64,000 nucleotides of DNA from a virus: positions 48,463 to 112,462 of the IMG/VR virus record IMGVR_UViG_3300037086_000474; one strand, written 5' to 3'. The position numbers were made by a program, and so were the translations under genes. Numbering within the stretch: position 1 is the stretch's first letter; every line of letters begins with the position of its first letter. Under the pieces are notes generated by a model. That model was not told where the DNA came from. It did no database searches and was given only the letters and a program-made list of their open reading frames with translations. Below, piece after piece: positions 16,965 through 61,897 of this stretch.

Positions 16965-16990
16965 TAAAAATTGTTTTCCGGAGCGTTAAT

Positions 16991-42639: not shown

Positions 42640-42804
42640 ATGGGCATGCCTCAAGAACCATTTCTGAAAAAGATTGTTGACAGTTTCATACTCGATCCTC
42701 ATGGCATTCATGGAATCGAGCATTGGATCAGGGCCTATGAGAATGGCTATTAGCCTGTGAACTTCTCATTTTAGAGCCTTTAGTGGTTGTTGTATTATCA
42801 TTTT

Positions 42805-43271: not shown

Positions 43272-43301
43272 AAAGGGGAGCAAGAGCTTCCCTTTCTTTT
43301 T
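43272..43301 (+). terminator. intrinsic terminator
   Basis: aaaggggagc-aaga-gcttcccttt-cttttt. Confidence 0.75.
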
Positions 43302-43302
43302 A

Positions 43303-43310
43303 GCATACTT
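43303..43310 (+). promoter_or_regulatory. GCATACTT promoter-like motif upstream of pncB
   Basis: Recurs before gene starts at 16550, 27987, 32780, 46936, with variants at 40040, 62606, 63986 and on the minus strand. Confidence 0.7.
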
Positions 43311-43338: not shown

Positions 43339-44499
43339 ATGGCGATTTACACTTCTCTTGCGGACGTGGACACTTACAAATTTTCAATGCAACAGGGTGT
43401 CCTTCATCAGTTTCCTGGAACTGAAGTTGAGTATGCTTTCAGGTGTCGTAATAGCGCAAAATGGACTTCTGAGATTGTGGGAGAAATTAATGATGAGCTC
43501 GATAATCTCTGTTCTCTTCGCTTTACCACTAATGAACTTGAGTATCTTGCCAACATCCGATTTCTCAAGCCTGATTACATCGACTTTTTGAGCCTCATGC
43601 AGCTCAATCGTGGCCACATCAGAGCATGGCTCGACAATACCAACAACCTTCAGATCCGTATCAAGGGAAGCTGGCTTCTCACCATCCTCTTCGAAGTCCC
43701 AGTCCTTGCCATCGTCAACGAAGTCTATTACCGCAACACTTACCCCACCATTCCCTACACCGCCGGGCGCGAGAGGTTGGAGAAGAAAGTCCTCCTCATC
43801 CCTGATGACATGTGGTATAGTGAGTTCGGAACTCGTCGCCGCCAGTCCTTCGACAATCAGGATGCAGTGATTGCCTATCTCATCGAGCAGAAGCGTGGAC
43901 ATTTCATGGGAACGTCAAATGTCTTTTTCGCCAAAAAGTATGGCATCACTCCCATTGGAACCATGGCTCATGAATGGATCCAGTGTGGCCAGGCCATCGG
44001 AGTCCGTCTCATTGATTCTCAGAAGCGGATGCTTCAGGCCTGGGTTGATGAATACCGCGGAGATCTTGGATACGCACTCTCTGATACTCTCGGAGTGGAT
44101 GCTTTTCTCCGTGACTTCGATCAGTATTTCGCAAAGTTGTATGATGGACTCCGACAGGATAGTGGCGACCCGATCGAATGGGGCGAAAAGGTCATCAAAC
44201 ATTATGAAGACCTCAAAGTGGATCCGAAGAACAAATCTCTCATCTTCTCTGACTCACTCGACATTGCCAAGGCAAAAATGATCAATGACACCTTCAAGGA
44301 AAGAGCAAAGGTTTCTTTCGGAATCGGCACTTATCTCACCAACGACATTCCTGGGATCGAACCTCTCAACTGCGTCATCAAAGTTGTGAGGTGCAATGGC
44401 CAGCCAGTGGCAAAAATATCTGATTCAAGTGGAAAAAGCATGTGTGAGGATCAGAGTTATGTCACGTATCTCAAGCAGATGTTCAAGATCGAGAGGTAG
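43339..44499 (+). CDS. pncB: nicotinate phosphoribosyltransferase
   Basis: DTYKFSMQQ, EFGTRRR, GTSNV, GTMAHEW, RQDSGDP, FSDSL, FGIGT, AKISDSSGK (E. coli PncB type). Confidence 0.95.
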   Translation: MAIYTSLADVDTYKFSMQQGVLHQFPGTEVEYAFRCRNSAKWTSEIVGEINDELDNLCSLRFTTNELEYLANIRFLKPDYIDFLSLMQLNRGHIRAWLDNTNNLQIRIKGSWLLTILFEVPVLAIVNEVYYRNTYPTIPYTAGRERLEKKVLLIPDDMWYSEFGTRRRQSFDNQDAVIAYLIEQKRGHFMGTSNVFFAKKYGITPIGTMAHEWIQCGQAIGVRLIDSQKRMLQAWVDEYRGDLGYALSDTLGVDAFLRDFDQYFAKLYDGLRQDSGDPIEWGEKVIKHYEDLKVDPKNKSLIFSDSLDIAKAKMINDTFKERAKVSFGIGTYLTNDIPGIEPLNCVIKVVRCNGQPVAKISDSSGKSMCEDQSYVTYLKQMFKIER

Positions 44500-44502
44500 A
44501 GT

Positions 44503-44907
44503 ATGTGGTTTTTTCTTATTGGAGTTGGCGTGATTTTTGCTGGATGCTTGATTTTTGCTTTTACCAAGCTAGATGCTGATGATTCAGTGTTGACAGCTAT
44601 TTTTGCATCTCTTTTCATCGCAATTGTGTTCAGCTTCGTAATCACTGCGATAGCAACATCTTGTGTACACAAAGAAACCATAGTGGAAAAAATGGATGTT
44701 GTTTCTGTGAAAACGTCGACAGGAACGGACTTTCTCTTCAAAGAAGGCAAAGAGTACAAAAACATCAACACTATGAAGTTTGACACGAAAATAACTATTG
44801 GTGAACAAATGATTGTTCAGAAAACGACGGTAAGAGTTCCTGAAAATGGTTGGTTTTTTCCAACTTCAAACTCAACCTATCTGCTTGTGATGGCTGAGGC
44901 GAGGTGA
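44503..44907 (+). CDS. membrane protein
   Basis: Two N-terminal TM segments. Confidence 0.65.
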   Translation: MWFFLIGVGVIFAGCLIFAFTKLDADDSVLTAIFASLFIAIVFSFVITAIATSCVHKETIVEKMDVVSVKTSTGTDFLFKEGKEYKNINTMKFDTKITIGEQMIVQKTTVRVPENGWFFPTSNSTYLLVMAEAR

Positions 44908-45290
44908 ATATGAACTTACTTGGTGGTTTAAGGAAGAAGGGTATAAAGAGACACAATGGTGAATACCACCAGTCTGACATCAAAGACTTTCAGGAAAAAT
45001 CCTCTGATGAAGAGAGATTGGTTTTTCTCAAAAATGTTTTTGATGAAAAAATCTATGGAGAGTACGCTGGCGGAACTCTGACCGGCATGCTGAATAAAAA
45101 GCTCAACTTCTTCAACGTGGGCAAGGGAGAGACAGAAGAAGAAAACTTTTGGATTGCTCTCAACTACATCAAGTATATGTCGGCCAATGGAAAAGGCGCT
45201 CACTATCAAGATGCTCTCGACATTGCCAACAAGGATCCAAACCAAGCTTTCATAGTGGCGAAAGCAATGCTCTGGAGTCAGAATGACTGA
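44904..45290 (+). CDS. hypothetical protein
   Basis: 128 aa, coupled. Confidence 0.6.
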   Translation: MNMNLLGGLRKKGIKRHNGEYHQSDIKDFQEKSSDEERLVFLKNVFDEKIYGEYAGGTLTGMLNKKLNFFNVGKGETEEENFWIALNYIKYMSANGKGAHYQDALDIANKDPNQAFIVAKAMLWSQND

Positions 45291-45630
45291 TGAAGACCAG
45301 ATGATCCAGGGGCGGTTTGTCTATGATTATTGGTATAAGCCGATCAATTGGAATGCCTATAGCCCAGACCAGTATCCTGGCATTGGTCTCAAAATCATCT
45401 TTGTTGGAACATATGCCTATTTGAGACTAGCTTCAAAAGAAAGAGGAAGATTTCATTTTGAGCTCTACGACTTTGCTCAGACCGAAAAGCCATTGAAATG
45501 GTTTAGTGTTCAAACCTTAGAAGGATTGCGTGAGGCATCAAACGGAGAAGTTGCTGAAAGTGCTGCTTATATTGCAAAGAAAATGATAGAAGACAGTTTA
45601 AGGAGAGGAAACTATGACTCATTTGTCTGA
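45283..45630 (+). CDS. hypothetical protein
   Basis: GGAG SD, 115 aa. Confidence 0.6.
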   Translation: MTDEDQMIQGRFVYDYWYKPINWNAYSPDQYPGIGLKIIFVGTYAYLRLASKERGRFHFELYDFAQTEKPLKWFSVQTLEGLREASNGEVAESAAYIAKKMIEDSLRRGNYDSFV

Positions 45631-45871
45631 TAGAGAGCGAACCATTCAAGGATATATTGCAGGCACTGTATTGTTTATCGTCGTAGCCAACTTTGCTTTG
45701 ATCATGATCAACTGGGTTGTGCGAGAGCCTTTTGCCCCATGGCTTTTATTTACTGGCACATCGGCTTTCTTTTTGATTTTATCACTCGTTCCTATTCAAA
45801 AACGATTGGCCAGAATCGTTGTTCGTATTATTGACCGAAAGAAGAATGAAAGAGAGAAGATTGATTTCTGA
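45614..45871 (+). CDS. small two-TM membrane protein
   Basis: Two hydrophobic helices. Confidence 0.6.
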   Translation: MTHLSDRERTIQGYIAGTVLFIVVANFALIMINWVVREPFAPWLLFTGTSAFFLILSLVPIQKRLARIVVRIIDRKKNEREKIDF

Positions 45872-45916
45872 ACTCTCTATCTAGGTTAACAAAGATAAAC
45901 TCAATAGGAAAAAAGT

Positions 45917-46612
45917 ATGAAAAAAATATTTTCTCTTCTAGTTTTGTTGGCACTAGTTGGATGTGTGAGTGTTCCAGACAACAAAGTCATTCTTCTTGCT
46001 CCTGTTCCACCTCATCCTCCTCTTACCACTGGCGCTGCTACTGTTCCAAAGGAAACTGGAACTTTCGATATTGATGCCCCAGTAGTCATTACCACCAATA
46101 CAATCAAAAATGAGATTCTTTTGAACCTCAAAGAGCTGAAAAACTCTGGTTTTACGATTGACATTTCTGATGCTCAGGTATATGGAGTCAATGATCAAAT
46201 GGCCGTTCTTGGTCTCAAAATTGATGCTCGATATAGTTTCTTCCATGCCAAGGGGTGGATCTATCTCCGCACCAAACCTGTACTTGATATACAGCGCCAA
46301 CAACTCCTTTTTACTAAAACCACATTTGATGTGCAAACGAAAAACGTGTTGGTTGGTGTTGCCAACTGGCTTCTTAATGCAGAGATTGTCAAACAAATCG
46401 ACAAAGTAAAATTCGATCTCACTGGGCCAATCAATCAACAAAAAGATTCTTTCAACAAACAGTTTGCCAACATGCCTCTTTCGGGAGTTGGAGATGCCCA
46501 TGGAAACGTGGTGAGTATTGTGGTTACCGACTACAAAATTGCCGACTCTGAGTTTTTAGTAAGGTTCAAAGTTATTGGAACTATTGATGTAAGGGTCAAC
46601 ATTCCAAAATGA
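45917..46612 (+). CDS. lipoprotein, DUF4403-like
   Basis: Lipobox LVGC; GWIYL.TKP...TKNVLVGVANWL pattern; AAGATA upstream. Confidence 0.6.
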   Translation: MKKIFSLLVLLALVGCVSVPDNKVILLAPVPPHPPLTTGAATVPKETGTFDIDAPVVITTNTIKNEILLNLKELKNSGFTIDISDAQVYGVNDQMAVLGLKIDARYSFFHAKGWIYLRTKPVLDIQRQQLLFTKTTFDVQTKNVLVGVANWLLNAEIVKQIDKVKFDLTGPINQQKDSFNKQFANMPLSGVGDAHGNVVSIVVTDYKIADSEFLVRFKVIGTIDVRVNIPK

Positions 46613-46926
46613 AGGTAGATGATCTCAAGCCATTCACATGGTACGCCGTATATGGTTCAGATGGCAAGTTCCTCATCGACAACATGCTTATAATCAACGA
46701 AGTTTCTAGAGATGATAAAGAAGCACTCTTTCAAGGGTTCTTGTTTCTTCCTCCAGAAGATCTTCAGTTCAGAAGAGGCGGATGGCTTTTTTCTCTTCCG
46801 TTAGATTCTGAAATGGACTGTCGGAAAGAATATCCTAAGCATAACGATAGAGTAAATCGACAGTGTATTGTTGAACTATTTCACACCCCCGCTTATGAAA
46901 CAGGAAAGACCACACAGCTAATCTAA
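46609..46926 (+). CDS. small protein, C-terminal-motif family
   Basis: LKPFTWYAV...NRQCIVELFHT. Confidence 0.6.
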   Translation: MKVDDLKPFTWYAVYGSDGKFLIDNMLIINEVSRDDKEALFQGFLFLPPEDLQFRRGGWLFSLPLDSEMDCRKEYPKHNDRVNRQCIVELFHTPAYETGKTTQLI

Positions 46927-46961
46927 TATTCTAAAGCATACTTACTTACGAAGGTGGGTGT

Positions 46962-47282
46962 ATGGTCGAGGAGAGAAATGGAAAACGCCTCCGCGATGCA
47001 TTGGGACTAATCCGAGGCAATATTTTCTATCTGAAAAATCGAGGACTTGTGGTTTGGACAGATGGATCCATTCATACTCATCTCGTCTATAAGAGCACTA
47101 GATTATGGGAGAATGAACCCCATTGCTATTTCAGTTTGTGTTGGGGTGCTCCTCTCAAAACCCGTCTTATAAGAGTCAAAGTCAAACAAATGCAAAACAT
47201 GTTCAATGATGACAGTTTGCAACCACTTTCAGAAGCCGAGTTTGCAAAGTTTATCCTTGGATTGAAAAAGGAAGAACTCTAA
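46962..47282 (+). CDS. hypothetical protein
   Basis: GCATACTT upstream; 106 aa. Confidence 0.6.
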   Translation: MVEERNGKRLRDALGLIRGNIFYLKNRGLVVWTDGSIHTHLVYKSTRLWENEPHCYFSLCWGAPLKTRLIRVKVKQMQNMFNDDSLQPLSEAEFAKFILGLKKEEL

Positions 47283-47320
47283 TCATTTTAGAGTTGTCAC
47301 TGGGAGGAGTATAATAAATC

Positions 47321-48622
47321 ATGTCGTTAGAATATAGAGGAAAGTACGGAAGCGCTATCGTCTTCAACGACGAGGTTGAAGCAACGGCTGTTTCTTCCAT
47401 CATCAATCTCATGAACCATGAGGTCGCTGAAAACGCCCACGTTCGAATCATGCCTGATGTCCATGCCGGAAAAGGTTGTGTCATCGGATACACCGCTCTT
47501 CTGACCAACAAGGTTATCCCCAATCTCATAGGTGTTGATATCGGTTGTTCCGTCGTCTCCTTCAAAATTGGACACTTCTCTGTCATTGGCGAACTTCGTG
47601 ATAAGCTCGACAAGTTTATTCGAGGCAATATTCCTTCCGGTCACGATGTCAGAAACAAACCTTTTGGTGGTCTTGATGTTCTCTTCAACGACAAGATTGC
47701 CGCGCCAGCCATCAGCTATGTCATCTACGACAAGAGCATCCGAGAGATCTGCAAGCAGGAAGGCCAGTCTTACGACAGGGTAATGGCTTCTATTGGAACT
47801 CTTGGTGGTGGAAATCATTTCATTGAGCTCGGCAAGGATGAGGAAGGTTTTCTCTGGCTGACTTTCCACTCTGGTTCTAGGAACTTTGGAAAAGTCATCT
47901 GTGAGTATCACCAGGAAGTTGCTGAGAAACAGATTCTTGGACCGGATGAGGATGAGTTCAAGCGCCAAGTTGAAATCATCAAGGCGACCAAGAAGGGAAA
48001 GGGAATTGAAGCCGCAATCCACGCTCTTCGGACTGGAATGTCGAAGAGGGGAAAGAAGTCTGGTCTCGAGTTCTTGACGGGCGATAAGAAGGATGACTAT
48101 CTCCATGATATGATGATCGCCCAGATGTATGCCAAGTTAAACAGGATGATCATGGCATATGATGTCATTCAGAACTTTTACAAGCTCAACTTTTTTGAGC
48201 TTGAGATGGTTGAGTCGGTGCATAACTACATCAACTTCGTGGATGGCATCGTCCGTAAGGGTGCGATTTCTGCTCACTCTGGTGAAAAGGTCATCATTCC
48301 TTTCAATATGAGGGATGGTCTCATTATTGGCAAGGGCAAGGGAAATGAAGATTGGAACAACTCTGCTCCTCACGGCAGTGGCCGTCTCATGAGTCGTACT
48401 CAGGCTAAGGGGTTGGATCTCGATTACTTCGAAAAGACCATGAAGGATGCTGGTGTTTGGTCCTCTTGTGTTGGCAAGGGAACGCTCGATGAGTCTCCCA
48501 TGGCCTACAAGAATTCTGAGTCCATCATCAAGTATTTGGAGCCAACGGTTGAGATCACCCATCGCGTGAAAAGCATCTATAATTTCAAGGCCGGAGAAGA
48601 GTCGAGGGAAAGGGAAGAATAA
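47321..48622 (+). CDS. rtcB: RtcB RNA ligase
   Basis: IMPDVHAGKGCVIG, GVDIGC, GTLGGGNHFIE, HSGSR, HNY, RKGA, SAPHGSGR, LDESPMAYK. Confidence 0.96.
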   Translation: MSLEYRGKYGSAIVFNDEVEATAVSSIINLMNHEVAENAHVRIMPDVHAGKGCVIGYTALLTNKVIPNLIGVDIGCSVVSFKIGHFSVIGELRDKLDKFIRGNIPSGHDVRNKPFGGLDVLFNDKIAAPAISYVIYDKSIREICKQEGQSYDRVMASIGTLGGGNHFIELGKDEEGFLWLTFHSGSRNFGKVICEYHQEVAEKQILGPDEDEFKRQVEIIKATKKGKGIEAAIHALRTGMSKRGKKSGLEFLTGDKKDDYLHDMMIAQMYAKLNRMIMAYDVIQNFYKLNFFELEMVESVHNYINFVDGIVRKGAISAHSGEKVIIPFNMRDGLIIGKGKGNEDWNNSAPHGSGRLMSRTQAKGLDLDYFEKTMKDAGVWSSCVGKGTLDESPMAYKNSESIIKYLEPTVEITHRVKSIYNFKAGEESREREE

Positions 48623-49102
48623 ATGGAGACGACTTTTCCCCAACGTCTAGCGTATGGCAAAGAGGCAGAAAGAGCGGTTTGTAATGTTTTAGATAAGCAA
48701 GAAGTTTCATATGAAACTACCGAAAAAAGATCAGATTGGAGTCCAACTTTTGACCAAAAGTATGGTGATATTTGGATATCAGCACCTTGGGGTAATAGAA
48801 TATTCAAAATTGATGTAAAAAGGTCGTCAGTTTCCTTTGATAGCATTGATCACTTTGAGGGAAACTATTTTATTCTAACTGAACATGAAATGAAACACTT
48901 TTTTGTTTTTCCTGCAAGTTCTATGAAACATTATAAGGCCACCTGCATTAAAAATGGTAATGGATATACAACACTTTCTTCAGGCGACGCTGGGATCAAA
49001 TTTGATCTTTATAAATTAGTTCATTTATACAAAGCCCTATTTCTCAATGTTTGGATTTCTGATATTATGAAACCATATGACTCAAGGGAAAGGGAAGACT
49101 AG
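48623..49102 (+). CDS. PD-(D/E)xK-type nuclease, probable mobile endonuclease
   Basis: GKEAE...GDIWI...KIDVK; AT-richer than neighbours; flanked by direct repeats. Confidence 0.6.
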   Translation: METTFPQRLAYGKEAERAVCNVLDKQEVSYETTEKRSDWSPTFDQKYGDIWISAPWGNRIFKIDVKRSSVSFDSIDHFEGNYFILTEHEMKHFFVFPASSMKHYKATCIKNGNGYTTLSSGDAGIKFDLYKLVHLYKALFLNVWISDIMKPYDSRERED

Positions 49103-49132
49103 ATTGCATATGTCTTGATAGAGGAGAGAAGA

Positions 49133-49978
49133 ATGCTGAAAGATGTCGAAGGTGCAGTGAAGAAGATTGTGAAGGAACTTCAGGACTTCACAGATTGTGC
49201 GACATTGGGCATGTCGGGTGGAGCGGATTCCACTCTCGTCGCATGTCTCTGCGTGAGGGCTCTGGGTGAGGAAAATATTTATGCTATTGGGCTTCCCTAC
49301 AGTGATCTTGACAAGAACAGCTTCAATAGCAGATCGAGACGGACAGCTGAGAGACTTGGGGTTCATTATACCGAGATCCCCATCAAGAAGCAGGTGGATT
49401 CAGTGGTTGAATCTCTTGGAATCAATGATTTTGTCAAGGGATCTGGACCCGAAGCCATGGACCCAGTTCAACTCGGTAACATCAAAGCCCGCATCCGCAT
49501 GACCACCCTTTATGCCATGAATGCGTGGCTCACATCCAATGGACAGAGATACCGTGTCATGGGAACCGGAAATCTTTCCGAAGACTTTATCGGCTATGAC
49601 ACCAAGGGTGGAGACGCTCTTGCCGACATTTTCCCAATCGGAACCCTCTTCAAGAGTGAAGTCTATCAAATGCTCGACCACTTCGTCAAAGAAGGCATGA
49701 TTGTCGATTCCGACATCGACCGTGTTCCGAGTGCAGGTCTCTGGAATGGACAGACCGACGAAGGAGAACTCGGCCATACTTATGCTGAGATGGAAGGTGC
49801 CATCCAGTGCCTCATCGATGATTATGACTCCATCAATAAACCATCAATCAATCCACTTCTTGAGTTTGTTCGCCAGAGACACCTCATCAACAAGCACAAA
49901 CATATCGGACCCCCTGTCATCAATGTCAGAGATCAGTGTCATTGGAACGACCACAATCACAAGTATTGGCAGCAATGA
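49133..49978 (+). CDS. nadE: NH3-dependent NAD+ synthetase
   Basis: GMSGGADS PP-loop, GNIKARIRM, GTGNLSE, GYDTKGGD, PSAGLW..QTDE; no glutaminase domain. Confidence 0.95.
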   Translation: MLKDVEGAVKKIVKELQDFTDCATLGMSGGADSTLVACLCVRALGEENIYAIGLPYSDLDKNSFNSRSRRTAERLGVHYTEIPIKKQVDSVVESLGINDFVKGSGPEAMDPVQLGNIKARIRMTTLYAMNAWLTSNGQRYRVMGTGNLSEDFIGYDTKGGDALADIFPIGTLFKSEVYQMLDHFVKEGMIVDSDIDRVPSAGLWNGQTDEGELGHTYAEMEGAIQCLIDDYDSINKPSINPLLEFVRQRHLINKHKHIGPPVINVRDQCHWNDHNHKYWQQ

Positions 49979-50382
49979 CCTACGAAGAGTTCCTGGCAGA
50001 GTATGATCAACTCATGAAATTATCCTCTAGAAAAGACAGAGGAGAGGCTATGGGTGTGTTAATCTCAAAGGTGCCGCAAGAGTTTGTCAATCGTCACAAT
50101 CAAGAGAGATATGAAAAGGAACTCTTTAATTGGAGAGACTTCCAAGTTGTTGGTGAAACCAAAGAAGCGAGAAAAGCCAAGGTGCTTCTCAGTGGTCATC
50201 AACTTGATGAAAGTGATGAGAGATTTACTGCTGCACTTATGCCAGAGGCAATTGCACAGGAGGCAGAGGTTTGGCACTTTCGCTCACCACCTGCCACTTG
50301 GACTCAACTAGCTGGCAGAGAGGGTTTCATGATCTTAAAGGGTGACAAGGTTCTGAAAACCAAGCTCACCAGAATGAACTAG
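49975..50382 (+). CDS. hypothetical protein
   Basis: ATGA overlap with nadE; FRSPPATW..LAGREG. Confidence 0.65.
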   Translation: MTYEEFLAEYDQLMKLSSRKDRGEAMGVLISKVPQEFVNRHNQERYEKELFNWRDFQVVGETKEARKAKVLLSGHQLDESDERFTAALMPEAIAQEAEVWHFRSPPATWTQLAGREGFMILKGDKVLKTKLTRMN

Positions 50383-50391
50383 GAGAAAGAG

Positions 50392-51939
50392 ATGGGGTTT
50401 TGGTCACCGCTTCGAGTTCACAATCTCATGGAAGACATCAGTTCACTCAACATTCGAAGAACTGATTTCTGTGATAACTGTCTCTTCTTCCAGAGAATGA
50501 TTGACGACTTCAAGAAGAAAAAAATCCCAACTCTTGAAATCGAACAGAAACTTGCGGAATATGGTTCTATTTCGCATCAACTGTCAGAACTCATTGGTGA
50601 GAAACAGGAGCAGCTGAAGAAGTTGATGCTGAAGAATAAATGAAAGATCTAACAAACGACATAGAAGTTTTAGGAGTTCGAATCAAAGAAGATTGTCTGC
50701 CCCTGGTTCAAAGGAAGATGGTTGATTTTCCTTCCATTCGTTTTCTCTACAATCCTTTGAGATACAAAGGCACTAACTACTATGAAATCTCCTATGGTGG
50801 TAGTGTGGATGATGTCAGAGGTTTCGAAACTACCATCGAAGATTTCTATTACAAAGAGCCCAAAGAAGAAAAGATTCCTTTCTTCCAGAGGCTCTTTGGA
50901 AAGCGCAAGTGACCTTCAAGAATCGAATCCATTCTGGAGATTACTGTTGGTTTGATTGGCTAGATTTCGAAAAGAAATTTCGTCCTAGTGTAATCAAACC
51001 TATCTACATCCTTACTCCTCGCCTGTGGGCCGAAGGCATCTTGATTTCTGATGTCGTATTATTTTTACAAGAGGGGTACTACGACAACTCTGATCAAATC
51101 AACTGTGGTTATTTTCGAGGTCTGATAAATAATCAAACCATCGATTTCATGATTGATAATGAAACTCTTGAAAAGGCATATGATCAATGTATGTTCGATC
51201 TTTCAAAAGAAGATGATCGAATAGCCAAGTTGATGTTGGTTTTAGAGATGAGCGGAGTTGATGTAATATGAAAGAAGAATAGATATGAAGCGTAGTCCAA
51301 TCTCGATCAAGGAATACAAACAGGGAAACTTTACTCCTTGTATCAATGACCTCAAGTTTCGACCTGTCATTAGGAAATACGGTGATTTTCCTGGTATTTT
51401 GAAGCGCGCGTTTTCAAACCACAGAGTGATATTCCTTGATCAGTTTGGCAAACAAGATTTCGTCTTCACTGGTGAATATAAGCACTATTGTTGGGGATTC
51501 ACCCTTCCATCTGGACTCCGTCTTGTTGTGCTCACTGGGAATCAAGGCACAGGATACGAATATGAACTGGGATCGAAGATTACCAAAGAAGACGTGGCTG
51601 ATCTCGATCATTTTCTAGATGGGCTGAAATAGGAGAAGAGAGATGAGTGCGAGGAAGATTGTTTTGTGGGTGATTTTGACCTTGGGCACACTTGCTCTCA
51701 TAGTCCTTATTAGCTTCACGATTTTTCGTGACTATCATCCGACACCCAAGCAGGCTATCGAAAGAGCTGTTGCCCATGAGGATAGCATGGAAGCTGGGCT
51801 TCCTACGAGTTTTGTTTTCATAGAAGATCGTGGCAATGGTTATCGTCTCTACAAGGACGAGTTTGGATACTACCTTGTTTGGCATGACACCACCTATGCG
51901 GCGTCAACTCACATCACTTTTCTTGGAAAGGCGAGATAA
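50392..51939 (+). other. run of five small hypothetical genes (50392-50643, 50640-50912, 50909-51271, 51285-51632, 51643-51939)
   Basis: Tandem ORFs with SD sites or overlapping starts/stops; the last has an N-terminal TM. Confidence 0.6.
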
Positions 51940-51944
51940 GATAG

Positions 51945-52514
51945 ATGAACAAGAAACAAGCCAGAGAGTTTGCCGCGAAGGTTGTTCATGTATGGTGTTC
52001 TGGAGATGAAGAGATTAATGAGCACGTCCAGGAGATTCTCTCCGGAGCGGCTGATGACTTGATTGGAATCGGTGCATTTCTTGAAAAGGAACATCCGAGA
52101 AATCCGTATCTTACAGTAGATGCCATTATTGAAGTTCCTATGCTTTACAAAAATGATGAATCTGGCATGGGGATTGTTGTCATCGAACGAAAGAACCCAC
52201 CACATGGTTTCGCTCTTCCTGGTGGATTTGTCGAATATGGTGAAAGTGTGGAAGACGCGGTGAAGAGAGAGTGCAAAGAAGAAACTGGTCTTGACGTCAG
52301 GATTTACAAACAGTTCCACGTCTATTCCAAGCCAAATCGCGATCCTCGACAGCACAATGTCTCAATCGTTTTCATCTGTCGAGCTGAGGCTCTTCCAGTA
52401 GCAGGAGATGATGCGGCAAAAGTTGATTTAGTTCCGTTCGGAAAGGTTCTGAAGCTCAAATTTGCTTTTGACCACAAACAAATCTTGACCGACTATTTGG
52501 AGATGCTTAGATGA
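51945..52514 (+). CDS. Nudix hydrolase (ADP-ribose pyrophosphatase-like)
   Basis: Nudix box ALPGGFVEYGESVEDAVKRECKEETGL; YSKPNRDPR, AGDDA, AFDH. Confidence 0.92.
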   Translation: MNKKQAREFAAKVVHVWCSGDEEINEHVQEILSGAADDLIGIGAFLEKEHPRNPYLTVDAIIEVPMLYKNDESGMGIVVIERKNPPHGFALPGGFVEYGESVEDAVKRECKEETGLDVRIYKQFHVYSKPNRDPRQHNVSIVFICRAEALPVAGDDAAKVDLVPFGKVLKLKFAFDHKQILTDYLEMLR

Positions 52515-52816
52515 AGGCTAAAGCTTCCTATAAAATACCATTCAACTCTAATGGTGATATGTGTACCTATGCTAGCACTTGGGACAAGGTTGAATGGAAA
52601 GACAACTGTGAGTGGGAAGACAATTTGGAGTATGAGTCTTTTGGCAGAGGAAGGTCTGCAGTGCATATTTACTTCAGGTCGTTGATCACGGGTAATAAAT
52701 ACACGATGTTCATGACGGATTTTCATGACATCATAAAAGACATGGTCACTGGAAGAGTTTCTGGGACCTTCACTTTTCAGAAGCGGGGTGCAAACTACGG
52801 AATGAGGAGAGTATGA
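52511..52816 (+). CDS. hypothetical phage protein
   Basis: RGRSA...FTFQKRGANYG. Confidence 0.65.
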   Translation: MKAKASYKIPFNSNGDMCTYASTWDKVEWKDNCEWEDNLEYESFGRGRSAVHIYFRSLITGNKYTMFMTDFHDIIKDMVTGRVSGTFTFQKRGANYGMRRV

Positions 52817-52953
52817 CCAAGTGCAGTGAGTGTGAAAAAGAGAGTGATATATTCTACACTTGGTTGCGTGTTGCGAAAAATCGGATTTTCTGTTCCTGGA
52901 AATGTTTGGGAACATGGTGTGATAGTCTATCCAAAGAAGGAGAGAAGAAATGA
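52813..52953 (+). CDS. 46-aa Zn-finger (TRASH-like) protein, not in ORF track
   Basis: MTKCSECEK...FCSWKCL; GAGGAG SD; ATGA overlaps at both ends. Confidence 0.65.
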   Translation: MTKCSECEKESDIFYTWLRVAKNRIFCSWKCLGTWCDSLSKEGEKK

Positions 52954-53285
52954 AGAAGCTGATTTGGGTTCTGTTGGGTGTGGCTGTTCTTATGCTCGCG
53001 GGTTGTGGGTATGAGAACCGGATCCGTGATTTTGGAGATAACAACGGCAACAAGAAGCCGGCAATTTCAGAACAGTCTCTCGGAAAAGGCGGAGTTTTCA
53101 AGGTCGATCTGCTTTTCGAAGTTGATGGGTATCGAGTGTATCGTTTTGTCGATAACGCCCATGACCGCTACCTTGTCCTACCGATCACCGACAAGCGCAC
53201 ATCCCAGGTTCTCAGCGATGAGTCCGAAACTCAGGGCAAGACGGTTATTTATCATGACGCGAGTATCATGACGGTTTTGAACTAG
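52950..53285 (+). CDS. lipoprotein, DUF4884-like
   Basis: Lipobox LAGC; FKVDLLFEVDGYRVYRFVD. Confidence 0.7.
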   Translation: MKKLIWVLLGVAVLMLAGCGYENRIRDFGDNNGNKKPAISEQSLGKGGVFKVDLLFEVDGYRVYRFVDNAHDRYLVLPITDKRTSQVLSDESETQGKTVIYHDASIMTVLN

Positions 53286-53288
53286 TTG

Positions 53289-53317
53289 AAACTGGCCTCC
53301 TTAGGAGGCCAGTTTTA
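53289..53317 (+). terminator. intrinsic terminator
   Basis: aaactggcctcc-tta-ggaggccagttt. Confidence 0.85.
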
Positions 53318-53378
53318 CTGATGATTGCATTGAGATTCAACAGAGAATCGATTTTTTGATGAGAGAGGAAGGATCAGT

Positions 53379-53567
53379 ATGGCAAAAAAGAGAGTGAAGT
53401 GCATCGAGAACGGTGAGTTTGAGAATGAGAGGTTCTCAAATGGCGAACTATTCTACAAACTCATCACAATCGACGACAAGGAGCTGCTTATTCTTCACGC
53501 AGGCGACGGAGGTGTGGTAGTTGTCGATCCCGCCAGTTTCAAGAAGAGCAAGAAGAAGACTGTCTGA
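53379..53567 (+). CDS. hypothetical protein
   Basis: AAGGA SD; 62 aa. Confidence 0.6.
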   Translation: MAKKRVKCIENGEFENERFSNGELFYKLITIDDKELLILHAGDGGVVVVDPASFKKSKKKTV

Positions 53568-53571
53568 CACA

Positions 53572-53913
53572 TTACGTCCAAGCAACCATTCCATCTGTAA
53601 TAGAGACGTGACAGCATTCATTTCCATCGATCCATTTGGCTGATATGCTAGGCGTTAGCGTAAAGGTTTCAAAGGTGTCCCCTCTCACCCTGTTCCAATA
53701 TGGAATATGATACTGCTGCAACCAATCCCATTGAACTTTCTTCAGATCTGCCAGACCCGGACTATCATCAGGATATGTAGAGATGATGGGCCAAAAATAA
53801 ACAAAGTGAATACGTTTTGGATTTTTTGGACAATGATAGGTAAGAGCAAGAGCGATTCCTGTAGCAACTGGAATTCTATTGCTCCATTCTGGTGAGAGAT
53901 CAATTAGTCTCAT
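53572..53913 (-). CDS. DUF6527-like Cys/His protein
   Basis: HCP...H...TLTPSI...CHVSITDG..W; AAGATA 8 nt upstream of ATG 53913. Confidence 0.55.
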   Translation of the reverse strand: MRLIDLSPEWSNRIPVATGIALALTYHCPKNPKRIHFVYFWPIISTYPDDSPGLADLKKVQWDWLQQYHIPYWNRVRGDTFETFTLTPSISAKWIDGNECCHVSITDGMVAWT

Positions 53914-54081
53914 TGTGATTTTATCTTCTCTGCGGCATGAGCATATATCTTCACGTCTGATCATCGTCCCAATAGGTGATCAAGGAGAAAAAGACATTGG
54001 AGGCTCGAGGTTTGCTCTCGGCCATTTTAGAGCATTTCACCCATGTGATAATATAAGACTATCTTATCATAAGGAGCGTGC

Positions 54082-56142
54082 ATGGAACTGAAGGGTGGGA
54101 TCAACCAGGTAAAGTCGAATGTTGCAGCTGACGGTGCTTTTACAATCACGACTTCTGCCAAGGCTTTCAAAATCCTTTCCGACAACCTCTATTCCGACAA
54201 GGTCCGCGCAGTCATCCGCGAGCTTTCTTGCAACGCCTACGACGCTCATGTGACTGTTGAAAAGGGAACCACTCCGTTCGAAGTGCACATGCCCACACGC
54301 GAAGAGCCCTTCTTCGCCGTGAAGGATTTTGGAACTGGTATGTCCCGTGACTTCGTCATGAACCTCTACACCTCCTATTTCAACTCCGACAAGACCCAGA
54401 GGAACGACTTGGTTGGAGCCCTTGGTCTTGGAAGCAAGAGCCCCTTCGCATACACCGACACCTTCACCGTGACCTCCATCTTGGATGGCACCAAGAGCGT
54501 CTACACCTGCTACATCAACAAGGACGGAACTCCCAACATCAGCCTCATGAACGAGAGCAAAACCGAAGAGGCCAATGGCGTCGAAGTGAAGCTTCCTGTG
54601 AAGATGCAGGATTTCGGCGAATTTGATTCAAAAGCCCAGGATGTTTTCAAGTATTTCACCACTCGCCCCAATTTCAACAACAAACAGAGAGTTCCCTCTT
54701 TCGATGTCCTCTACCATGGAAAGACATGGAAGCTTCTGAAGCATGACTATGACAGCCACTGTGTTGCGATTCAGGGAAACGTTGCCTACCCCATCGATTC
54801 AAACCGCCTGATGGGCCTCAACAAAGCCGAAGAGTTTGTCTGCCACAACAGCTTCATCTTGGATTTCAACATTGGAGACCTCGACATTGCGGCTTCTCGT
54901 GAGGCCCTCAGCTACGATGAGGCTACTATCACCAACCTCAAGAAGAAGATGAATGAGGTTCACAAGGACCTCGTGAAACAGATCACCAAAAAGATCGCCG
55001 ACATTTCCTCGAAGTGGGAAGCAGTGGTTGTCCTGAAGGGCCTCATCAACGGCCTCAGCTACAACAATGCTCTTCGCATCCCTTACAAGGGCGAGGAAAT
55101 TGTCGACACGACTTTCAAGGTCAGCGTCAAGTCGATTCAGACTTCAGTCCACCTCTACAAGCGCAACAGCCGCAATCAGGATTACATTGGCCGCGAGATC
55201 CTCACCAAACCTGAGCAGGAAGCCATCCACATCAGCCCGACTTCCAACATCCAGTTCGTCGTCAACGATCAGAAGCGTACTGGTGTCAGCAAGGTAAAGA
55301 TCCTTGTGAAGGAAACCAGCAATCATATCTATGTTCTTGAGAGCGAAGATCAGATATTCTTGAAAGCGATGGGAAATCCCAAGGTGACCTATACTTCTGA
55401 GCTTCCTGATCTTCCGAAGGCCGAGAAGAAGCGCGAAGCCAAGGAGCAGAAAAAGACTTTCGTCCCCTTCAGGTACGGCCGCTTCGAAGACTCTGCCAGC
55501 ATGTCGATGAATCAGCTCGAGAAGAGCGCTGTGAAGTACTATGTCATCATGAAGCGCAATCATGTCATGGATGGTGAGATTCAGGTAGATAATCGCACCT
55601 TCAATGATAGGATCAACGACGCCATCAAGATTGAGGCTCTTCCTAAGGATGTTCAGATCTTCGGCGTTCCCTACTGGGCGCCCACTCAGAAGTGGTGGAA
55701 GAATGTCTCTCGCATCACTTCTCTCTTCAGCGTTCTTGAGACCCTCACGAAGGAAACGGTGAAGGCCAACATGGATGCTATTGTGACCTACGCAGAGTCC
55801 TATGCCACTTACGAAGCAGTTCAGCAGCAGGAAAATCTCTACCAGCAGGTTCTTCAAAGTGTAGCCATCACGAATCGCATCAAAAAGGTCGACTCGAAGT
55901 TCTTCCTTCTGAAGGCAGAGTTTTCTTCCATCATCGCCAACTACAAGAAGGGTACTGCGAGCTCGAAGATGAGCGCCCTCTACGAACTGGCATGCCGCTA
56001 CGGCATGGTGAAGACGACCAAGAAGAACGTTGAGAAGATTGAGACCGTGTATCCGATGCTGAAGGTTCTCGACAAGTGGAACATCAAGAACTCCACCGAA
56101 GAGATTGCCGATTATATCAACCTCGTGGATCAGGCGCGCTAG
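54082..56142 (+). CDS. rIIA: rIIA-like protein (GHKL ATPase N-terminus)
   Basis: AFKILSDNLYSDK..VIRELSCNAYDAH, DFGTGMS, GALGLGSKSPFAYTDTF. Confidence 0.9.
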   Translation: MELKGGINQVKSNVAADGAFTITTSAKAFKILSDNLYSDKVRAVIRELSCNAYDAHVTVEKGTTPFEVHMPTREEPFFAVKDFGTGMSRDFVMNLYTSYFNSDKTQRNDLVGALGLGSKSPFAYTDTFTVTSILDGTKSVYTCYINKDGTPNISLMNESKTEEANGVEVKLPVKMQDFGEFDSKAQDVFKYFTTRPNFNNKQRVPSFDVLYHGKTWKLLKHDYDSHCVAIQGNVAYPIDSNRLMGLNKAEEFVCHNSFILDFNIGDLDIAASREALSYDEATITNLKKKMNEVHKDLVKQITKKIADISSKWEAVVVLKGLINGLSYNNALRIPYKGEEIVDTTFKVSVKSIQTSVHLYKRNSRNQDYIGREILTKPEQEAIHISPTSNIQFVVNDQKRTGVSKVKILVKETSNHIYVLESEDQIFLKAMGNPKVTYTSELPDLPKAEKKREAKEQKKTFVPFRYGRFEDSASMSMNQLEKSAVKYYVIMKRNHVMDGEIQVDNRTFNDRINDAIKIEALPKDVQIFGVPYWAPTQKWWKNVSRITSLFSVLETLTKETVKANMDAIVTYAESYATYEAVQQQENLYQQVLQSVAITNRIKKVDSKFFLLKAEFSSIIANYKKGTASSKMSALYELACRYGMVKTTKKNVEKIETVYPMLKVLDKWNIKNSTEEIADYINLVDQAR

Positions 56143-56358
56143 ATGAAGTATATCATCACAAACAATACCATATCAGTTGTCCTGGAAAATGGAACCACAA
56201 TGGTCTGTGACAACACTCATGAGCAGTTTGAGGCCATCAAGACCGCTATTGCAAACAAGGATGAGGAAGAGGTTGCCTATCTCTTCAACAAGATCATAGT
56301 GGATCAGGCTGCTCAGCTTCTTCGCAAGACTTGCGGAGAGCAGAAGACCTGGAGGTAA
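56143..56358 (+). CDS. short protein resembling only the rIIB N-terminus
   Basis: Directly after rIIA; ITNNTISVV...THEQFEAIKTAI; only 71 aa. Confidence 0.5.
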   Translation: MKYIITNNTISVVLENGTTMVCDNTHEQFEAIKTAIANKDEEEVAYLFNKIIVDQAAQLLRKTCGEQKTWR

Positions 56359-56362
56359 GACA

Positions 56363-56629
56363 ATGTTTTGGAAACTGAGAAGGTTGTTTAGGTGGCCATG
56401 GAAATGGCCACATGTTTTTCACAACTATGAGATTTTGCTTTCGGAAATCATCACTGAAGAGTGTGAGAAGATTCTCTTTAGAAAACCTCCAGATCTTGCA
56501 CACATGCTTCGTTGGGAAAAGTGCCAGGGTTGCGAGAAGCAGAGAGTGTTTCTCATTTCCATTGATGGAAAACAAACAAAGATCGAACCTACTTTTGTGA
56601 AGGCTATCGACAAGGTATGTAGGAAATAA
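56363..56629 (+). CDS. hypothetical protein
   Basis: GGAGG SD; CQGC motif. Confidence 0.6.
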   Translation: MFWKLRRLFRWPWKWPHVFHNYEILLSEIITEECEKILFRKPPDLAHMLRWEKCQGCEKQRVFLISIDGKQTKIEPTFVKAIDKVCRK

Positions 56630-56630
56630 T

Positions 56631-56822
56631 ATGACTCAATCAAAACGACTTTGCCGTTCATCTTCAGATAGTTGGGTTGGTGGTGTTTGCGGTGGTCTAG
56701 GAAAGTATTTCGAAATCGATGCAAGCATCATCAGGCTGATTTGGATTGTTGCCATTTTGGCGGCGGGTTTCGGTTTTGGACTCTACATCATCCTCTGGAT
56801 CATTATGCCGAGGGGGAGGTAG
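56631..56822 (+). CDS. PspC-domain membrane protein
   Basis: KRLCRS..D..VGGVCGGLGKYF.ID...IRL...LYIILWIIMP. Confidence 0.9.
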   Translation: MTQSKRLCRSSSDSWVGGVCGGLGKYFEIDASIIRLIWIVAILAAGFGFGLYIILWIIMPRGR

Positions 56823-56823
56823 T

Positions 56824-57174
56824 ATGAAATTTTCCTCAATCAAAGAAGGGGTCGTTTTCACTCTTCCGAGTGGGTATCGACTTTACAGAGAAAAGAAAGG
56901 TGGTCCTTCTTTCACGACGAGTGACAAACTTGTTGGTGATTATGTCGTCATCAACTTTCAGTATCGGCCTGGATGGCATCATGATCCCAAGACCCCAGAT
57001 TTTCAGTATTGGATCTGGGCCAAGCGTCTCGACAAGAATGGCCGGTGGAAGGACAATGGTGCGGAGATTCGACTTCATACTGGTTCCGAAAATGAACGCG
57101 ATCTCGTCACCATTCCTATCGAAAATCTGAAGTTGAAAAAGCACATGAAGCGGACCTATGTGGATGAGAAATAG
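56824..57174 (+). CDS. hypothetical protein
   Basis: GGAGG SD before MKFSSIKEG. Confidence 0.6.
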   Translation: MKFSSIKEGVVFTLPSGYRLYREKKGGPSFTTSDKLVGDYVVINFQYRPGWHHDPKTPDFQYWIWAKRLDKNGRWKDNGAEIRLHTGSENERDLVTIPIENLKLKKHMKRTYVDEK

Positions 57175-57177
57175 AAA

Positions 57178-57405
57178 ATGAAAACTTTTCAAATCAAATC
57201 ATTCAGTGCACTCATGATCTATTTCATCGCAGCCATGTCTACTGGTGGAGCACTTTGCATGACGGGGATCGTTGCGTACTTGTGGATTTTCATGGGAGCA
57301 CCGATTCGTGCATTCATTGTTGATCTTCTTCTCGTAGATGGAGGAACAGCAATCATCATTTTCATGGCGGTTCGCAAAGCCCGTTCACTCAACAAAAGGC
57401 GGTAG
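57178..57405 (+). CDS. small two-TM membrane protein
   Basis: Two hydrophobic helices. Confidence 0.6.
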   Translation: MKTFQIKSFSALMIYFIAAMSTGGALCMTGIVAYLWIFMGAPIRAFIVDLLLVDGGTAIIIFMAVRKARSLNKRR

Positions 57406-57411
57406 TTTAAA

Positions 57412-58350
57412 ATGGACACAAAGGACCGTTTTCTAGGTTGCATATATGGGCTCGCTATCGGGGACGCTTTAGGGGCCCCTGTCGAGTTTCAGACTCTCCA
57501 GATCGGTGGTAAAAGAGTCTCATTTTTGTCTGATTGGGGCGGTCATCCTGTAGGTTCTTATACAGATGATACCCAAATGTCACTTGCGACAGCACAGGGT
57601 ATCATCGATGCATTCAAGAAGAAAGACAGATGGTCTACTCCATATGTCTATAAGAGATATCTCGATTGGCTCGATACTCAAATGTCTGCAGAACAATCGA
57701 GAGCTCCTGGCCGCACCTGCATAAGAGCACTGGCAAGTGGAAAGATGGGAACAATCGAACAACACCTCAATGATAGCAAGGGGTGTGGTGGTGTCATGCG
57801 AACGGCACCAATCGGTCTTGTCTATAAAGATCCTGAAACAGTTTTTAGGTATGGAGCAGAGTGTGCAGCAATCACTCATGGACATCCATCTGGATACCTT
57901 TCTGCAGGGTATCTTTCTCACATCATCTATCTCCTCAACAAAGGTGATGTGGATCTGAAGACTGCGATCAGTCTTCCCATCATCATTCTTCGTGGATATA
58001 AAGGTTATGAAGAGATGGACAAAATCATCCACGACGTAGTCAAATACTATAGTGATCCAAGTATGTCGATCGAAGACGCCATCAACAAGTTGGGTCAAGG
58101 ATGGATTGGAGAAGAGGCTCTTGCAGTTTCAGTCTACTCAGCACTAAAGTTCTCTGATGATTGGAAAGCTGGAGTTCTTGCAGCTATAAACTACTCTGGA
58201 GACAGTGACTCTTGTGGTTCGATTACCGGAGCTATCCTTGGAACCATGTTGGGAGTTGATGCCATTCCTTCTGAATGGGTAGAGAAAGTGGAGAACTCTC
58301 ACTACATCAAAACAATTTCTGAAGAGCTCTGGAAATATAGAGAGATCTAG
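57412..58350 (+). CDS. ADP-ribosylglycohydrolase (DraG/ARH family)
   Basis: GLAIGDALGAPVEF, YTDDTQM, GCGGVMR..PIGL, ITHGHP, GDSDSCGSITG. Confidence 0.95.
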   Translation: MDTKDRFLGCIYGLAIGDALGAPVEFQTLQIGGKRVSFLSDWGGHPVGSYTDDTQMSLATAQGIIDAFKKKDRWSTPYVYKRYLDWLDTQMSAEQSRAPGRTCIRALASGKMGTIEQHLNDSKGCGGVMRTAPIGLVYKDPETVFRYGAECAAITHGHPSGYLSAGYLSHIIYLLNKGDVDLKTAISLPIIILRGYKGYEEMDKIIHDVVKYYSDPSMSIEDAINKLGQGWIGEEALAVSVYSALKFSDDWKAGVLAAINYSGDSDSCGSITGAILGTMLGVDAIPSEWVEKVENSHYIKTISEELWKYREI

Positions 58351-58381: not shown

Positions 58382-59101
58382 ATGACCTTTGTCACTGGCG
58401 ATTGTCATGGAGTAAGCCTAAACAGTGAAATCATGAAGCTCTCAAAGAGCAACTGGCCTCTTTCTAAGTCACTGACAAAGAGAGACTATCTCATCGTCGC
58501 CGGTGATTGGGGAGTCGTTTGGAGCGGCCTCCTTGATTCCATCAAAACCGAAAACTATCTCATCAACTGGCTCAACAATGCCCCATTTACAACTCTCGTT
58601 GTTCGTGGAAATCACGACAATCCTCTCCGTCTTGCCGACTTTCCTGAGGTGGAAATGTTTGGAGATGTTGTCAAGCAAATCTCTGACACTATTTTCTATC
58701 TGCTCGATGGCCATATCTATAACATCGACGGCAAGATCATCTTTGTTTTGGGTGGAGCGGACTCTTTTGACAAGGCACAGAGGGTCGAAGGAGTTTCTTG
58801 GTGGAGAGAAGAGATTCCATCCTACATGACCATCAAGGAAGGTGTTGATAGGCTGGCCAAGATCAACTTCAATGTGGATTATGTGATTACTCATGCCATT
58901 TTCACAGAGGCCTATGAGGCTCTGTGGGGTAAACAGGCTAATGATCGCCACTTCAGAGATCCCATGATCAAGAGTCTGCAAGTAATCAAGGACAGTTTGA
59001 CCTACAAAGCTTGGTATTGTGGTCACTATCACAAAGACCAATATCTTGCTGATTATCGTGTTCGTGTTCTCTACTACAAAATAGTAGAAATAGGAGCATA
59101 A
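58382..59101 (+). CDS. calcineurin-like metallophosphoesterase
   Basis: GDCHG, GDWG, GNHD, ITH, GHYH. Confidence 0.92.
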   Translation: MTFVTGDCHGVSLNSEIMKLSKSNWPLSKSLTKRDYLIVAGDWGVVWSGLLDSIKTENYLINWLNNAPFTTLVVRGNHDNPLRLADFPEVEMFGDVVKQISDTIFYLLDGHIYNIDGKIIFVLGGADSFDKAQRVEGVSWWREEIPSYMTIKEGVDRLAKINFNVDYVITHAIFTEAYEALWGKQANDRHFRDPMIKSLQVIKDSLTYKAWYCGHYHKDQYLADYRVRVLYYKIVEIGA

Positions 59102-59102
59102 G

Positions 59103-59717
59103 ATGAAGATAACTTTGCTTGGTGATTCTATTTTCGACAACGCTCGTTATGTAAATCCTGATGAAAGGTCAGTGATCGAACATCTGAAGGCTGTTGGAAT
59201 GGATGCTGATCTTCTGGCTGTTGATGGAAGCATCACACTCGATGTCACAAGACAGTTGGAAAAATGTTCTAATCTCACGTCTCACTTCGTCATCAGTTGT
59301 GGTGGAAATGACGCTCTCTACGCAGAGACTGTGATTTCAACCGCCATAACCGCTCAGTCCCTACTGCATGCTCTTCAAAACATTCAGATGGATTTCAGAA
59401 TCAACTATCATCAACTCCTTGCAAAGATGAAGGAGACTGGTATTCCGACTTTCGTCTGCACAATCTATGACAAGATCCCACATTTCAGTCCTGAAGAGCT
59501 AACTTTGCTTTCCATTTTCAATGATGTCATCATTTCAACAGCGACATTCTTTGGGTATTCAGTGATTGATCTCCGTCCGCTTTGCAACGATCCCAAAGAT
59601 TATTCAGAGCTTTCACCCATAGAGCCTTCAAACCAGGGAGGGGAGAAGATTGCAAACAAGATCGCTAGCACACTGAAGCGTTGGAACCCAAAGTTCAGCA
59701 AGACGGTGATCTTTTAG
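59103..59717 (+). CDS. SGNH/GDSL hydrolase
   Basis: LLGDSIFDN, GGND, PIEPS...GGEKIA. Confidence 0.85.
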   Translation: MKITLLGDSIFDNARYVNPDERSVIEHLKAVGMDADLLAVDGSITLDVTRQLEKCSNLTSHFVISCGGNDALYAETVISTAITAQSLLHALQNIQMDFRINYHQLLAKMKETGIPTFVCTIYDKIPHFSPEELTLLSIFNDVIISTATFFGYSVIDLRPLCNDPKDYSELSPIEPSNQGGEKIANKIASTLKRWNPKFSKTVIF

Positions 59718-59939: not shown

Positions 59940-59976
59940 TTTTTAGAGCCGGTGGTTTCTGTAGTATAATGAACTC

Positions 59977-60864: not shown

Positions 60865-60865
60865 C

Positions 60866-61759: not shown

Positions 61760-61897
61760 TTTATATCTCCCTGAATGTATATAAATATGCATCGAGGAAG
61801 ATGGATGGAAATATGTTCGACATTTTAGAGAGAGTGGCCAATATGATAAGATTTCTTCTAACAAAGATTCTTCTAGATAGAAGGGAAGGGTACGGAG

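Follow-up and report, generated by a model that had tools for sequence, protein, structure and literature searches.

Three genes in the last 64 kb of the 112,462-bp IMG/VR virus record IMGVR_UViG_3300037086_000474 probably constitute a dispersed, reduced copy of a Preiss–Handler salvage module for nicotinamide adenine dinucleotide (NAD+) that recurs in large phages. They encode the nicotinate phosphoribosyltransferase PncB (43339–44499), the NAD+ synthetase NadE (49133–49978) and a Nudix hydrolase (51945–52514), all on the plus strand of this 64,000-nucleotide stretch (positions 48,463 to 112,462 of the record), which we call the window and whose numbering is used throughout. Across phages, PncB and NadE are a real and recurrent pair that forms the constant core of the module, while NadD, PncA and Nudix hydrolases of this family are common but not obligatory additions. 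A first-pass annotation of the window had grouped these three genes with a fourth, coding for an ADP-ribosylglycohydrolase (DraG/ARH; 57412–58350, plus strand). All four genes were recovered with intact-looking reading frames and strong family matches, and the ARH was found to lie outside the NAD-salvage module, with a separate function.

Family models assign the 386-amino acid PncB to the type I nicotinate phosphoribosyltransferases, which form nicotinate mononucleotide (NaMN) from nicotinate and phosphoribosyl pyrophosphate (PRPP). Both NAPRTase domains are matched (PF17767 with 113.5 bits, PF04095 with 254.6 bits), and the protein scores above the equivalog cut-offs of TIGR01514 (475.5 bits, cut-off 269.55) and NF003704 (528.7 bits, cut-off 379). 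Its nearest solved structure, 1YIR, deposited as “Nicotinate phosphoribosyltransferase 2”, aligns from end to end with 382.7 bits. Residues 206–213 (IGTMAHEW) align with LGTMAHEW of 1YIR, a motif that is invariant in three phage sequences; in enterobacterial PncB, the conserved histidine of GTxAHE is the residue that becomes autophosphorylated with ATP. No nicotinamide phosphoribosyltransferase model was found among the NCBIfam matches of the protein, and its sole PHROG match, to the NAMPT family, is weak (57.5 bits). PncB is predicted from its sequence to use nicotinate.

The 281-amino acid NadE is assigned by family models to the NH3-dependent NAD+ synthetases, which convert nicotinate adenine dinucleotide (NaAD), ATP and NH3 to NAD+ (PF02540, 151.3 bits; TIGR00552, 140.9 bits, cut-off 63.65). 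It consists of a single domain and therefore has no glutaminase domain. The P-loop is present (MSGGADST, corresponding to SGGxDS), and the ATG at 49133 is preceded by a GGAG Shine–Dalgarno sequence. The nearest solved chains are 2E18 (110 bits, aligned over the full length), 3P52 and 3FIU (78 bits), all of which are deposited as “NH(3)-dependent NAD(+) synthetase”. The protein scores below the full-length equivalog NF010587 (172.7 bits, cut-off 255). 3FIU is a Francisella enzyme that prefers NaMN; for the phage NadE, NaAD is the presumed substrate.

The Nudix hydrolase (189 amino acids; PF00293, 75.2 bits) has an intact catalytic box, in which the pattern GX5EX7REUXEEXGU is complete (GFVEYGESVEDAVKRECKEETGL, read from the translation as G-x5-E-x7-REcxEExGl). 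Its best NCBIfam matches are all far below the respective cut-offs, namely NrtR (43.9 of 400 bits), NadM-Nudix (40.4 of 354 bits) and NudF-type ADPRase (23.1 of 248 bits). In NrtR and NadM-Nudix proteins, the Nudix domain binds or hydrolyses ADP-ribose. The nearest solved structure is 2YYH (123 bits), for which we know of no tested substrate; more distant structure matches are 3GZ5 and 3GZ8 (“MutT/nudix family”) and 2QJT and 2QJO (NMN adenylyltransferase and bifunctional NMN adenylyltransferase/Nudix hydrolase, NMN being nicotinamide mononucleotide). The protein is an enzyme and not a repressor, because its catalytic box is intact, it covers only positions 18–156 of the 245-position NrtR profile and a DNA-binding domain was not found. 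It probably acts as an ADP-ribose pyrophosphatase, producing adenosine monophosphate (AMP) and ribose-5-phosphate. Of the earlier designation “ADP-ribose-type Nudix”, the family and the intact box thus stand, and the ADP-ribose type is no more than a reasonable reading, since the specific models stay below their cut-offs. Homologues of the protein are found at most 10 kb from PncB in 10 of 80 phage loci (see below), two of them, 44–45% identical, between pncB and nadD, and its membership in the NAD module is plausible.

The recurrence of the module was assessed by searching IMG/VR with a three-sequence PncB alignment, which returned 96 contigs with relatives, 80 loci of which were examined; whole-record counts refer to 49 large IMG/VR records, 18 of them at least 90% complete. 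The survey of pncB and nadE co-occurrence for which the first-pass annotation had called gave a strong pairing: NadE is encoded in 42 of the 49 large PncB records and in all 18 near-complete ones. In 51 of the 80 loci the two genes are at most 10 kb apart, usually within 5 kb and mostly within 3 kb of each other. A gene of the cytidylyltransferase family (NadD/NMNAT type) was found in 29 of the 49 records (13 of the 18 near-complete ones) and a gene of the isochorismatase family (PncA type) in 33 (also 13 of the 18). Five of the 18 near-complete genomes with PncB and NadE have no PF01467 adenylyltransferase (G003, G004, G029, G040 and G042). The PncB identities of these five are widely spread, which suggests that NadD was lost more than once. 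Among 50,697 GenBank phage records, PncB is present in 13, NadE in 39 and both in nine (hypergeometric P ~2e-26); these hits include two pairs of duplicate records, and three of the records with PncB represent bacterial or flanking sequence. The top PncB match, “Acinetobacter phage MD-2021a” (CAKLQH020000008.1), was rejected, as it consists of bacterial chromosome contigs with housekeeping genes such as glmS, glmU, ribH, nusB and phoBR, and its pncB and nadE are not phage genes.

The module also occurs as a compact operon of the order pncB–nudix–nadD–nadE–pncA–x–rtcB, in which x denotes a further gene, in two unrelated contigs (L036, 9980–16906, 235 kb and 98% complete; L032, 9785–15384), and these are the two in which the Nudix homologue stands between pncB and nadD. 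An unknown 410-amino acid operon gene of L036 has a weak metallophosphatase match, and a 177-amino acid open reading frame (ORF) upstream in the same contig weakly matches AAA_28, the family to which the kinase domains of NadR-type proteins belong. In the complete 139-kb phage G004, a radical-SAM gene (L011, 6453–7385) is located about 2 kb upstream of a pncA–pncB–nadE operon.

Judged by these genes, the nearest relative of the window is contig G001, in which PncB (69% identity), NadE (63%), the Nudix hydrolase (56%) and the RNA ligase RtcB (60%) are all present, together with a small membrane protein after pncB. Overall, only nine of 173 ORFs are shared, and NadD and PncA are absent from G001 too. 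The presence of the same accessory set despite so little else being shared suggests that the accessory genes move as a group from one large phage to another to which it is otherwise unrelated.

The region between 43 and 58 kb is phage DNA rather than host flank, because a homologue of T4 rIIA is located between the Nudix and ARH genes (54082–56142; 686 amino acids with a weak HSP90/GHKL-like N-terminus; phrog_612, 456 bits) and phage genes surround the block. Nearby genes include those for the large terminase, tail proteins, homing endonucleases and an intein-interrupted ligase, and the ORFs of the window are small, closely spaced and oriented in the same direction. The record carries the label “provirus” in IMG/VR, the genes are dispersed and cellular organisms provide the nearest named homologues of PncB (55–58% identity), all of which would suit unrelated passengers without a joint phage function, acquired recently from a host or representing host DNA at the edge of a mis-called provirus. 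We consider this explanation extremely unlikely, given that the block is flanked or interrupted by rIIA, the intein-split ligase and homing endonucleases, that PncB, NadE, Nudix and RtcB recur at 56–69% identity in a phage contig sharing almost nothing else, and that PncB and NadE co-occur in phages far above chance. DNA at least 99% identical to that of the phage is present in peat metagenomes of three further studies, and the phage is therefore a genuine peat resident. A GenBank search for near-identical phage genomes returned none. To extend the contig, the final 51 bases of the window were sought as an exact match in metagenome contigs, without a hit.

If the three genes act as a salvage module, phage PncB would produce NaMN from nicotinate and PRPP, the essential host NadD would convert NaMN to NaAD, and phage NadE would complete the route from NaAD to NAD+. 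The Nudix hydrolase would split ADP-ribose, the other product of NADases, into AMP and ribose-5-phosphate, the latter of which could be returned to PRPP by host Prs. Nicotinamide could enter only by way of a nicotinamidase, which is not encoded in the 112 kb, so that this step would be left to host PncA. Overall, the infected cell would have more NAD+ at its disposal. The substrates, the reliance on NadD, PncA and Prs of the host and a benefit to the phage are inferred.

Several points weigh against a working salvage module in this phage. The genes pncB, nadE and Nudix are scattered over 9 kb, with nine ORFs (including RtcB) between pncB and nadE and about six between nadE and the Nudix gene. 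The first-pass annotation had stated that PncA and NadD/NadM are not in the window, and their absence extends over the entire record: six-frame Pfam searches of the 112,462 bp gave no PF01467 match for NadD/NMNAT and no match for PncA, and neither was recovered when every ORF of at least 40 amino acids was screened, unfiltered, with a profile of 13 NadD sequences and one of 17 PncA sequences, all from phages. The best profile match, an ORF at 16904–17350 (E = 0.049), was considered as a hidden NadD and rejected; it has no HxGH motif and is not an adenylyltransferase. The encoded pathway is therefore incomplete and would depend on host NadD. Because the record is only ~54% complete according to CheckV, the absence of NadD and PncA holds for the sequenced part and not for the whole genome. 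The ADP-ribose specificity of the Nudix hydrolase is deduced from resemblance and gene context, since no family-specific cut-off is reached. NADases release nicotinamide, which PncB is not expected to use. In the literature found, there is no experimental test of any phage Preiss–Handler set. Lastly, one peat metatranscriptome run contains eight contigs of 150–220 nucleotides that are identical to this region, including pieces in pncB (43527–43749) and nadE (49361–49502) and six other short stretches; these are a weak hint of in situ expression, as they could also stem from carried-over DNA.

Phage gene sets of the Preiss–Handler route have been described before, and the set in the window belongs to this class, in a reduced and dispersed form. 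Li et al (2024) reported “NAD-jumbo phages” with a pncB–nadD–nadE cluster, such as Kuafu_71 (Microbiome 2024, PMC11662467). Like the present phage, those phages are large and encode PncB and NadE for the nicotinate route, and the same role of raising NAD+ has been proposed for them. The present set differs in being derived from peat rather than from gut, in the dispersal of its genes over 9 kb and in the lack of NadD in 112 kb, and it therefore falls outside the “complete pathway” of that study (pncB, nadD and nadE); the related IMG/VR clusters of our survey additionally contain PncA and Nudix. For the cultured Xanthomonas phage X1, a 2026 paper suggested that pncB, nadM, nadD and nadE may counter NAD-depleting defence (PMC13384950). 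Two further cultured jumbo phages, Agrobacterium phage Atu_ph07 and Sinorhizobium phage Phosso, encode PncB and NadE together, as here. In Atu_ph07 an annotated ADP-ribose pyrophosphatase lies 3 kb from pncB, and in Phosso nadE lies about 0.7 kb from pncB; their proteins are only 27–31% identical to those of the window and belong to other lineages with other hosts.

The phage NAD+ reconstitution pathways that have been demonstrated experimentally are NARP1 (Adps and Namat), NARP2 (Nampt and Nmnat) and NARP3 (PnuC and NadR) (10.1101/2024.02.11.579819; PMC13464706). The presumed goal of restoring NAD+ is the same, and the handling of ADP-ribose by a Nudix hydrolase would parallel the use of ADP-ribose in NARP1. 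In contrast, the present set comprises different enzymes on a predicted deamidated route that would not use nicotinamide without a nicotinamidase. The six-frame search of the 112 kb found no Prs/Adps (PF13793), no NAD-dependent ligase, no second NAPRTase/Nampt gene (PF04095) and no PnuC (PF04973). Hence NARP1 is set apart by the missing Adps and by the sole PF04095 gene being PncB itself, which leaves no Namat, NARP2 by the lack of a second PF04095 gene (Nampt) and of a PF01467 match (NMN adenylyltransferase), and NARP3 by the lack of PnuC and of a PF01467 (NadR-like) match. The distinction from NARP1 and NARP2 drawn in the first-pass annotation was therefore borne out, whereas its suggestion of a third, new type of pathway was overtaken by the literature: Preiss–Handler clusters were published in 2024 (PMC11662467), and the third name has gone to PnuC and NadR as NARP3 (PMC13464706). 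The available part of a November 2026 review covers NARP1, NARP2 and aRES counter-measures and mentions neither NARP3 nor a Preiss–Handler route (PMC13728456). In large phages this route is widespread (96 IMG/VR contigs from one query) and known from bioinformatics only. The window adds no new principle, and its main value lies in the survey that it led to, with PncB and NadE as the constant core, NadD, PncA and Nudix as options and ARH as unrelated.

The gap left by NadD could in theory be closed by a chemistry that does without it, in which NadE acts as an NMN synthetase on NaMN together with a host NMN adenylyltransferase, or in which the PncB-like protein joins ADP-ribose pyrophosphate and nicotinate to NaAD, in analogy to Namat of NARP1. 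The five near-complete genomes with PncB and NadE that have no PF01467 gene are in line with this, as is the presence of 3FIU (78 bits), the enzyme that prefers NaMN, among the structure matches of NadE. Yet PncB scores far above the NAPRTase equivalog cut-off and is close to 1YIR, a Prs/Adps-like enzyme that could make ADP-ribose pyrophosphate was not found in G000, G001, G003, G004 or G017, and NadE is nearer to 2E18 and 3P52 than to 3FIU, while the NMN version would still need an adenylyltransferase. A NadD-independent route is accordingly very unlikely, and we retain the Preiss–Handler reading with host NadD.

NAD+ depletion is a common bacterial strategy against phages. The advantage of the salvage genes could lie in offsetting NAD-depleting defences, a possibility that we take seriously without favouring it, and we hold the same view of a general feeding of phage replication; these data do not separate counter-defence from general supply. 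A role in boosting NAD is credible because of three observations. In Pseudomonas aeruginosa, the deletion of pncB, nadD2 or nadE worsens the toxicity of a RES-domain NAD-depleting toxin (PMC11535050); in E. coli, the overexpression of pncB raises NAD, according to work cited in PMC6128845; and jumbo phage PA5oct induces the host pncA–pncB1–nadE operon during infection (PMC7318152). The P. aeruginosa salvage pathway I consists of the same enzymes (pncB1, nadD2 and nadE), is controlled by the ADP-ribose-sensing repressor NrtR and buffers the RES-domain NADase toxin (PMC11535050). The phage Nudix hydrolase is similar to the Nudix domain found in NrtR and in NadM proteins, but it is an enzyme and not a repressor, and ADP-ribose-controlled regulation is not evident in the phage. 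One could go further and regard the PncB and NadE core as a self-standing fourth NAD+ reconstitution strategy, which would use host NadD, treat its own NadD and PncA as optional, include an ADP-ribose-splitting Nudix hydrolase and rescue the phage from NADase-based immunity. NadD can be called optional in this core because five of the 18 near-complete phage genomes are without it; the strategy as a whole appears doubtful to us.

A still more comprehensive scheme, put forward in the first-pass annotation, joins PncB, NadE, Nudix and ARH into one closed-loop counter-defence system, in which ADP-ribose would be recycled and the deamidated pool would be proof against NADases. All four genes are indeed intact and co-directional within 15 kb, the Nudix family is present inside phage NAD operons, and a bacterial salvage route is known to counter an NAD-depleting toxin (PMC11535050). 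The union of the four genes holds for PncB and NadE, with their strong co-occurrence, and for Nudix, which lies beside PncB in 10 of the 80 loci, but not for ARH, which was found in only three of the 49 other PncB-carrying records (two of the 18 near-complete ones) and, at a distance of up to 10 kb from PncB, in none of the 80 loci. In the window itself, rIIA and several small unrelated ORFs separate the Nudix gene from ARH. Shielding of NaMN or NaAD from NADases found no support in this analysis or in the literature found. The GCATA motif that had been noted before both pncB and nadE is present at 43303 and 49106, but it carries no signal: GCATA occurs 102 times in the window compared with 94 ± 11 times in shuffled sequences, 27 of 100 of which reach 102, and at this chance frequency it gives no evidence of shared regulation. 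We therefore judge the four-gene loop to be unlikely and treat ARH apart from the salvage module of PncB, NadE and Nudix.

The ARH itself (312 amino acids; PF03747, 234.4 bits) has the acidic metal-binding motifs GDALG, TDDT and GDSDS, and its nearest solved structures are DraG, ARH1 and ARH3. It opens a tight trio with a calcineurin-like metallophosphatase (58382–59101) and a GDSL/SGNH hydrolase (59103–59717), the gaps being 31 nucleotides and one nucleotide, and this trio was found near PncB in none of the 80 phage loci. The three genes may constitute an operon whose products act on derivatives of ADP-ribose or on ADP-ribosylated targets, and the ARH most likely frees some modified target of its ADP-ribose. 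A published precedent, from a different family, is a phage enzyme that removes ADP-ribose from DNA to counter DarTG (PMC13728456).

Among the genes between pncB and nadE is the one for RtcB (47321–48622, plus strand; PF01139, 195.9 bits; phrog_1075, 409 bits). As a possible further member of the module, RtcB was compared with chance, and six records were found in which RtcB is at most 11 kb away from PncB or NadE, where about 2.8 were expected. An association is not claimed because the excess is weak and two of the six records are near-duplicates; RtcB probably has a separate function in RNA repair. Its 3′ end is abutted by a 159-amino acid ORF without a family match that precedes nadE (both within 47321–49102) and shows, by eye, a PD-(D/E)xK-like D...IDVK pattern. 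This ORF was also considered as an adenylyltransferase and discarded, given the lack of a family match and its nuclease-like appearance. Together with RtcB, it may form an RNA- or DNA-repair unit.

Immediately upstream of pncB, a terminator-like hairpin with a T run (43272–43295, plus strand; a 10-pair stem with five GC pairs and a CTTTTT tail) would mark the point at which a new block of co-directional genes begins. Directly after pncB follows a gene for a 134-amino acid protein (44503–44907, plus strand) with two N-terminal membrane helices by eye and no Pfam or PHROG match. The same adjacency is seen in G001, where a 28% identical homologue begins 19 bp after PncB (L002, 11201–11569), and the protein is a possible accessory of PncB.

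Three promoter-like sites of the form TTTAGA-N17-TAT(A/T)AT are located at 42770–42798, 47287–47315 and 59942–59970, just upstream of the ORF at 42787, of rtcB and of the ligase gene, respectively, and are absent at pncB and nadE; they may represent a class of phage promoters. The ligase-like ORF (region 59977–62059) turns into an intein (Hint module) right after KLDG|C, with a stop about 105 amino acids further on, and a C-terminal ligase half was not seen in the remainder of the window. A convergent gene for a 397-amino acid endonuclease-like protein (DUF7487, zinc finger) ends 2 nucleotides from this intein-split ORF. Two genes inside the phage genome suggest heavy traffic of mobile elements, one for a transposase (15184–16437; phrog_506, 341 bits), the other for a large HNH homing endonuclease (19924–21414; phrog_3339, 393 bits).

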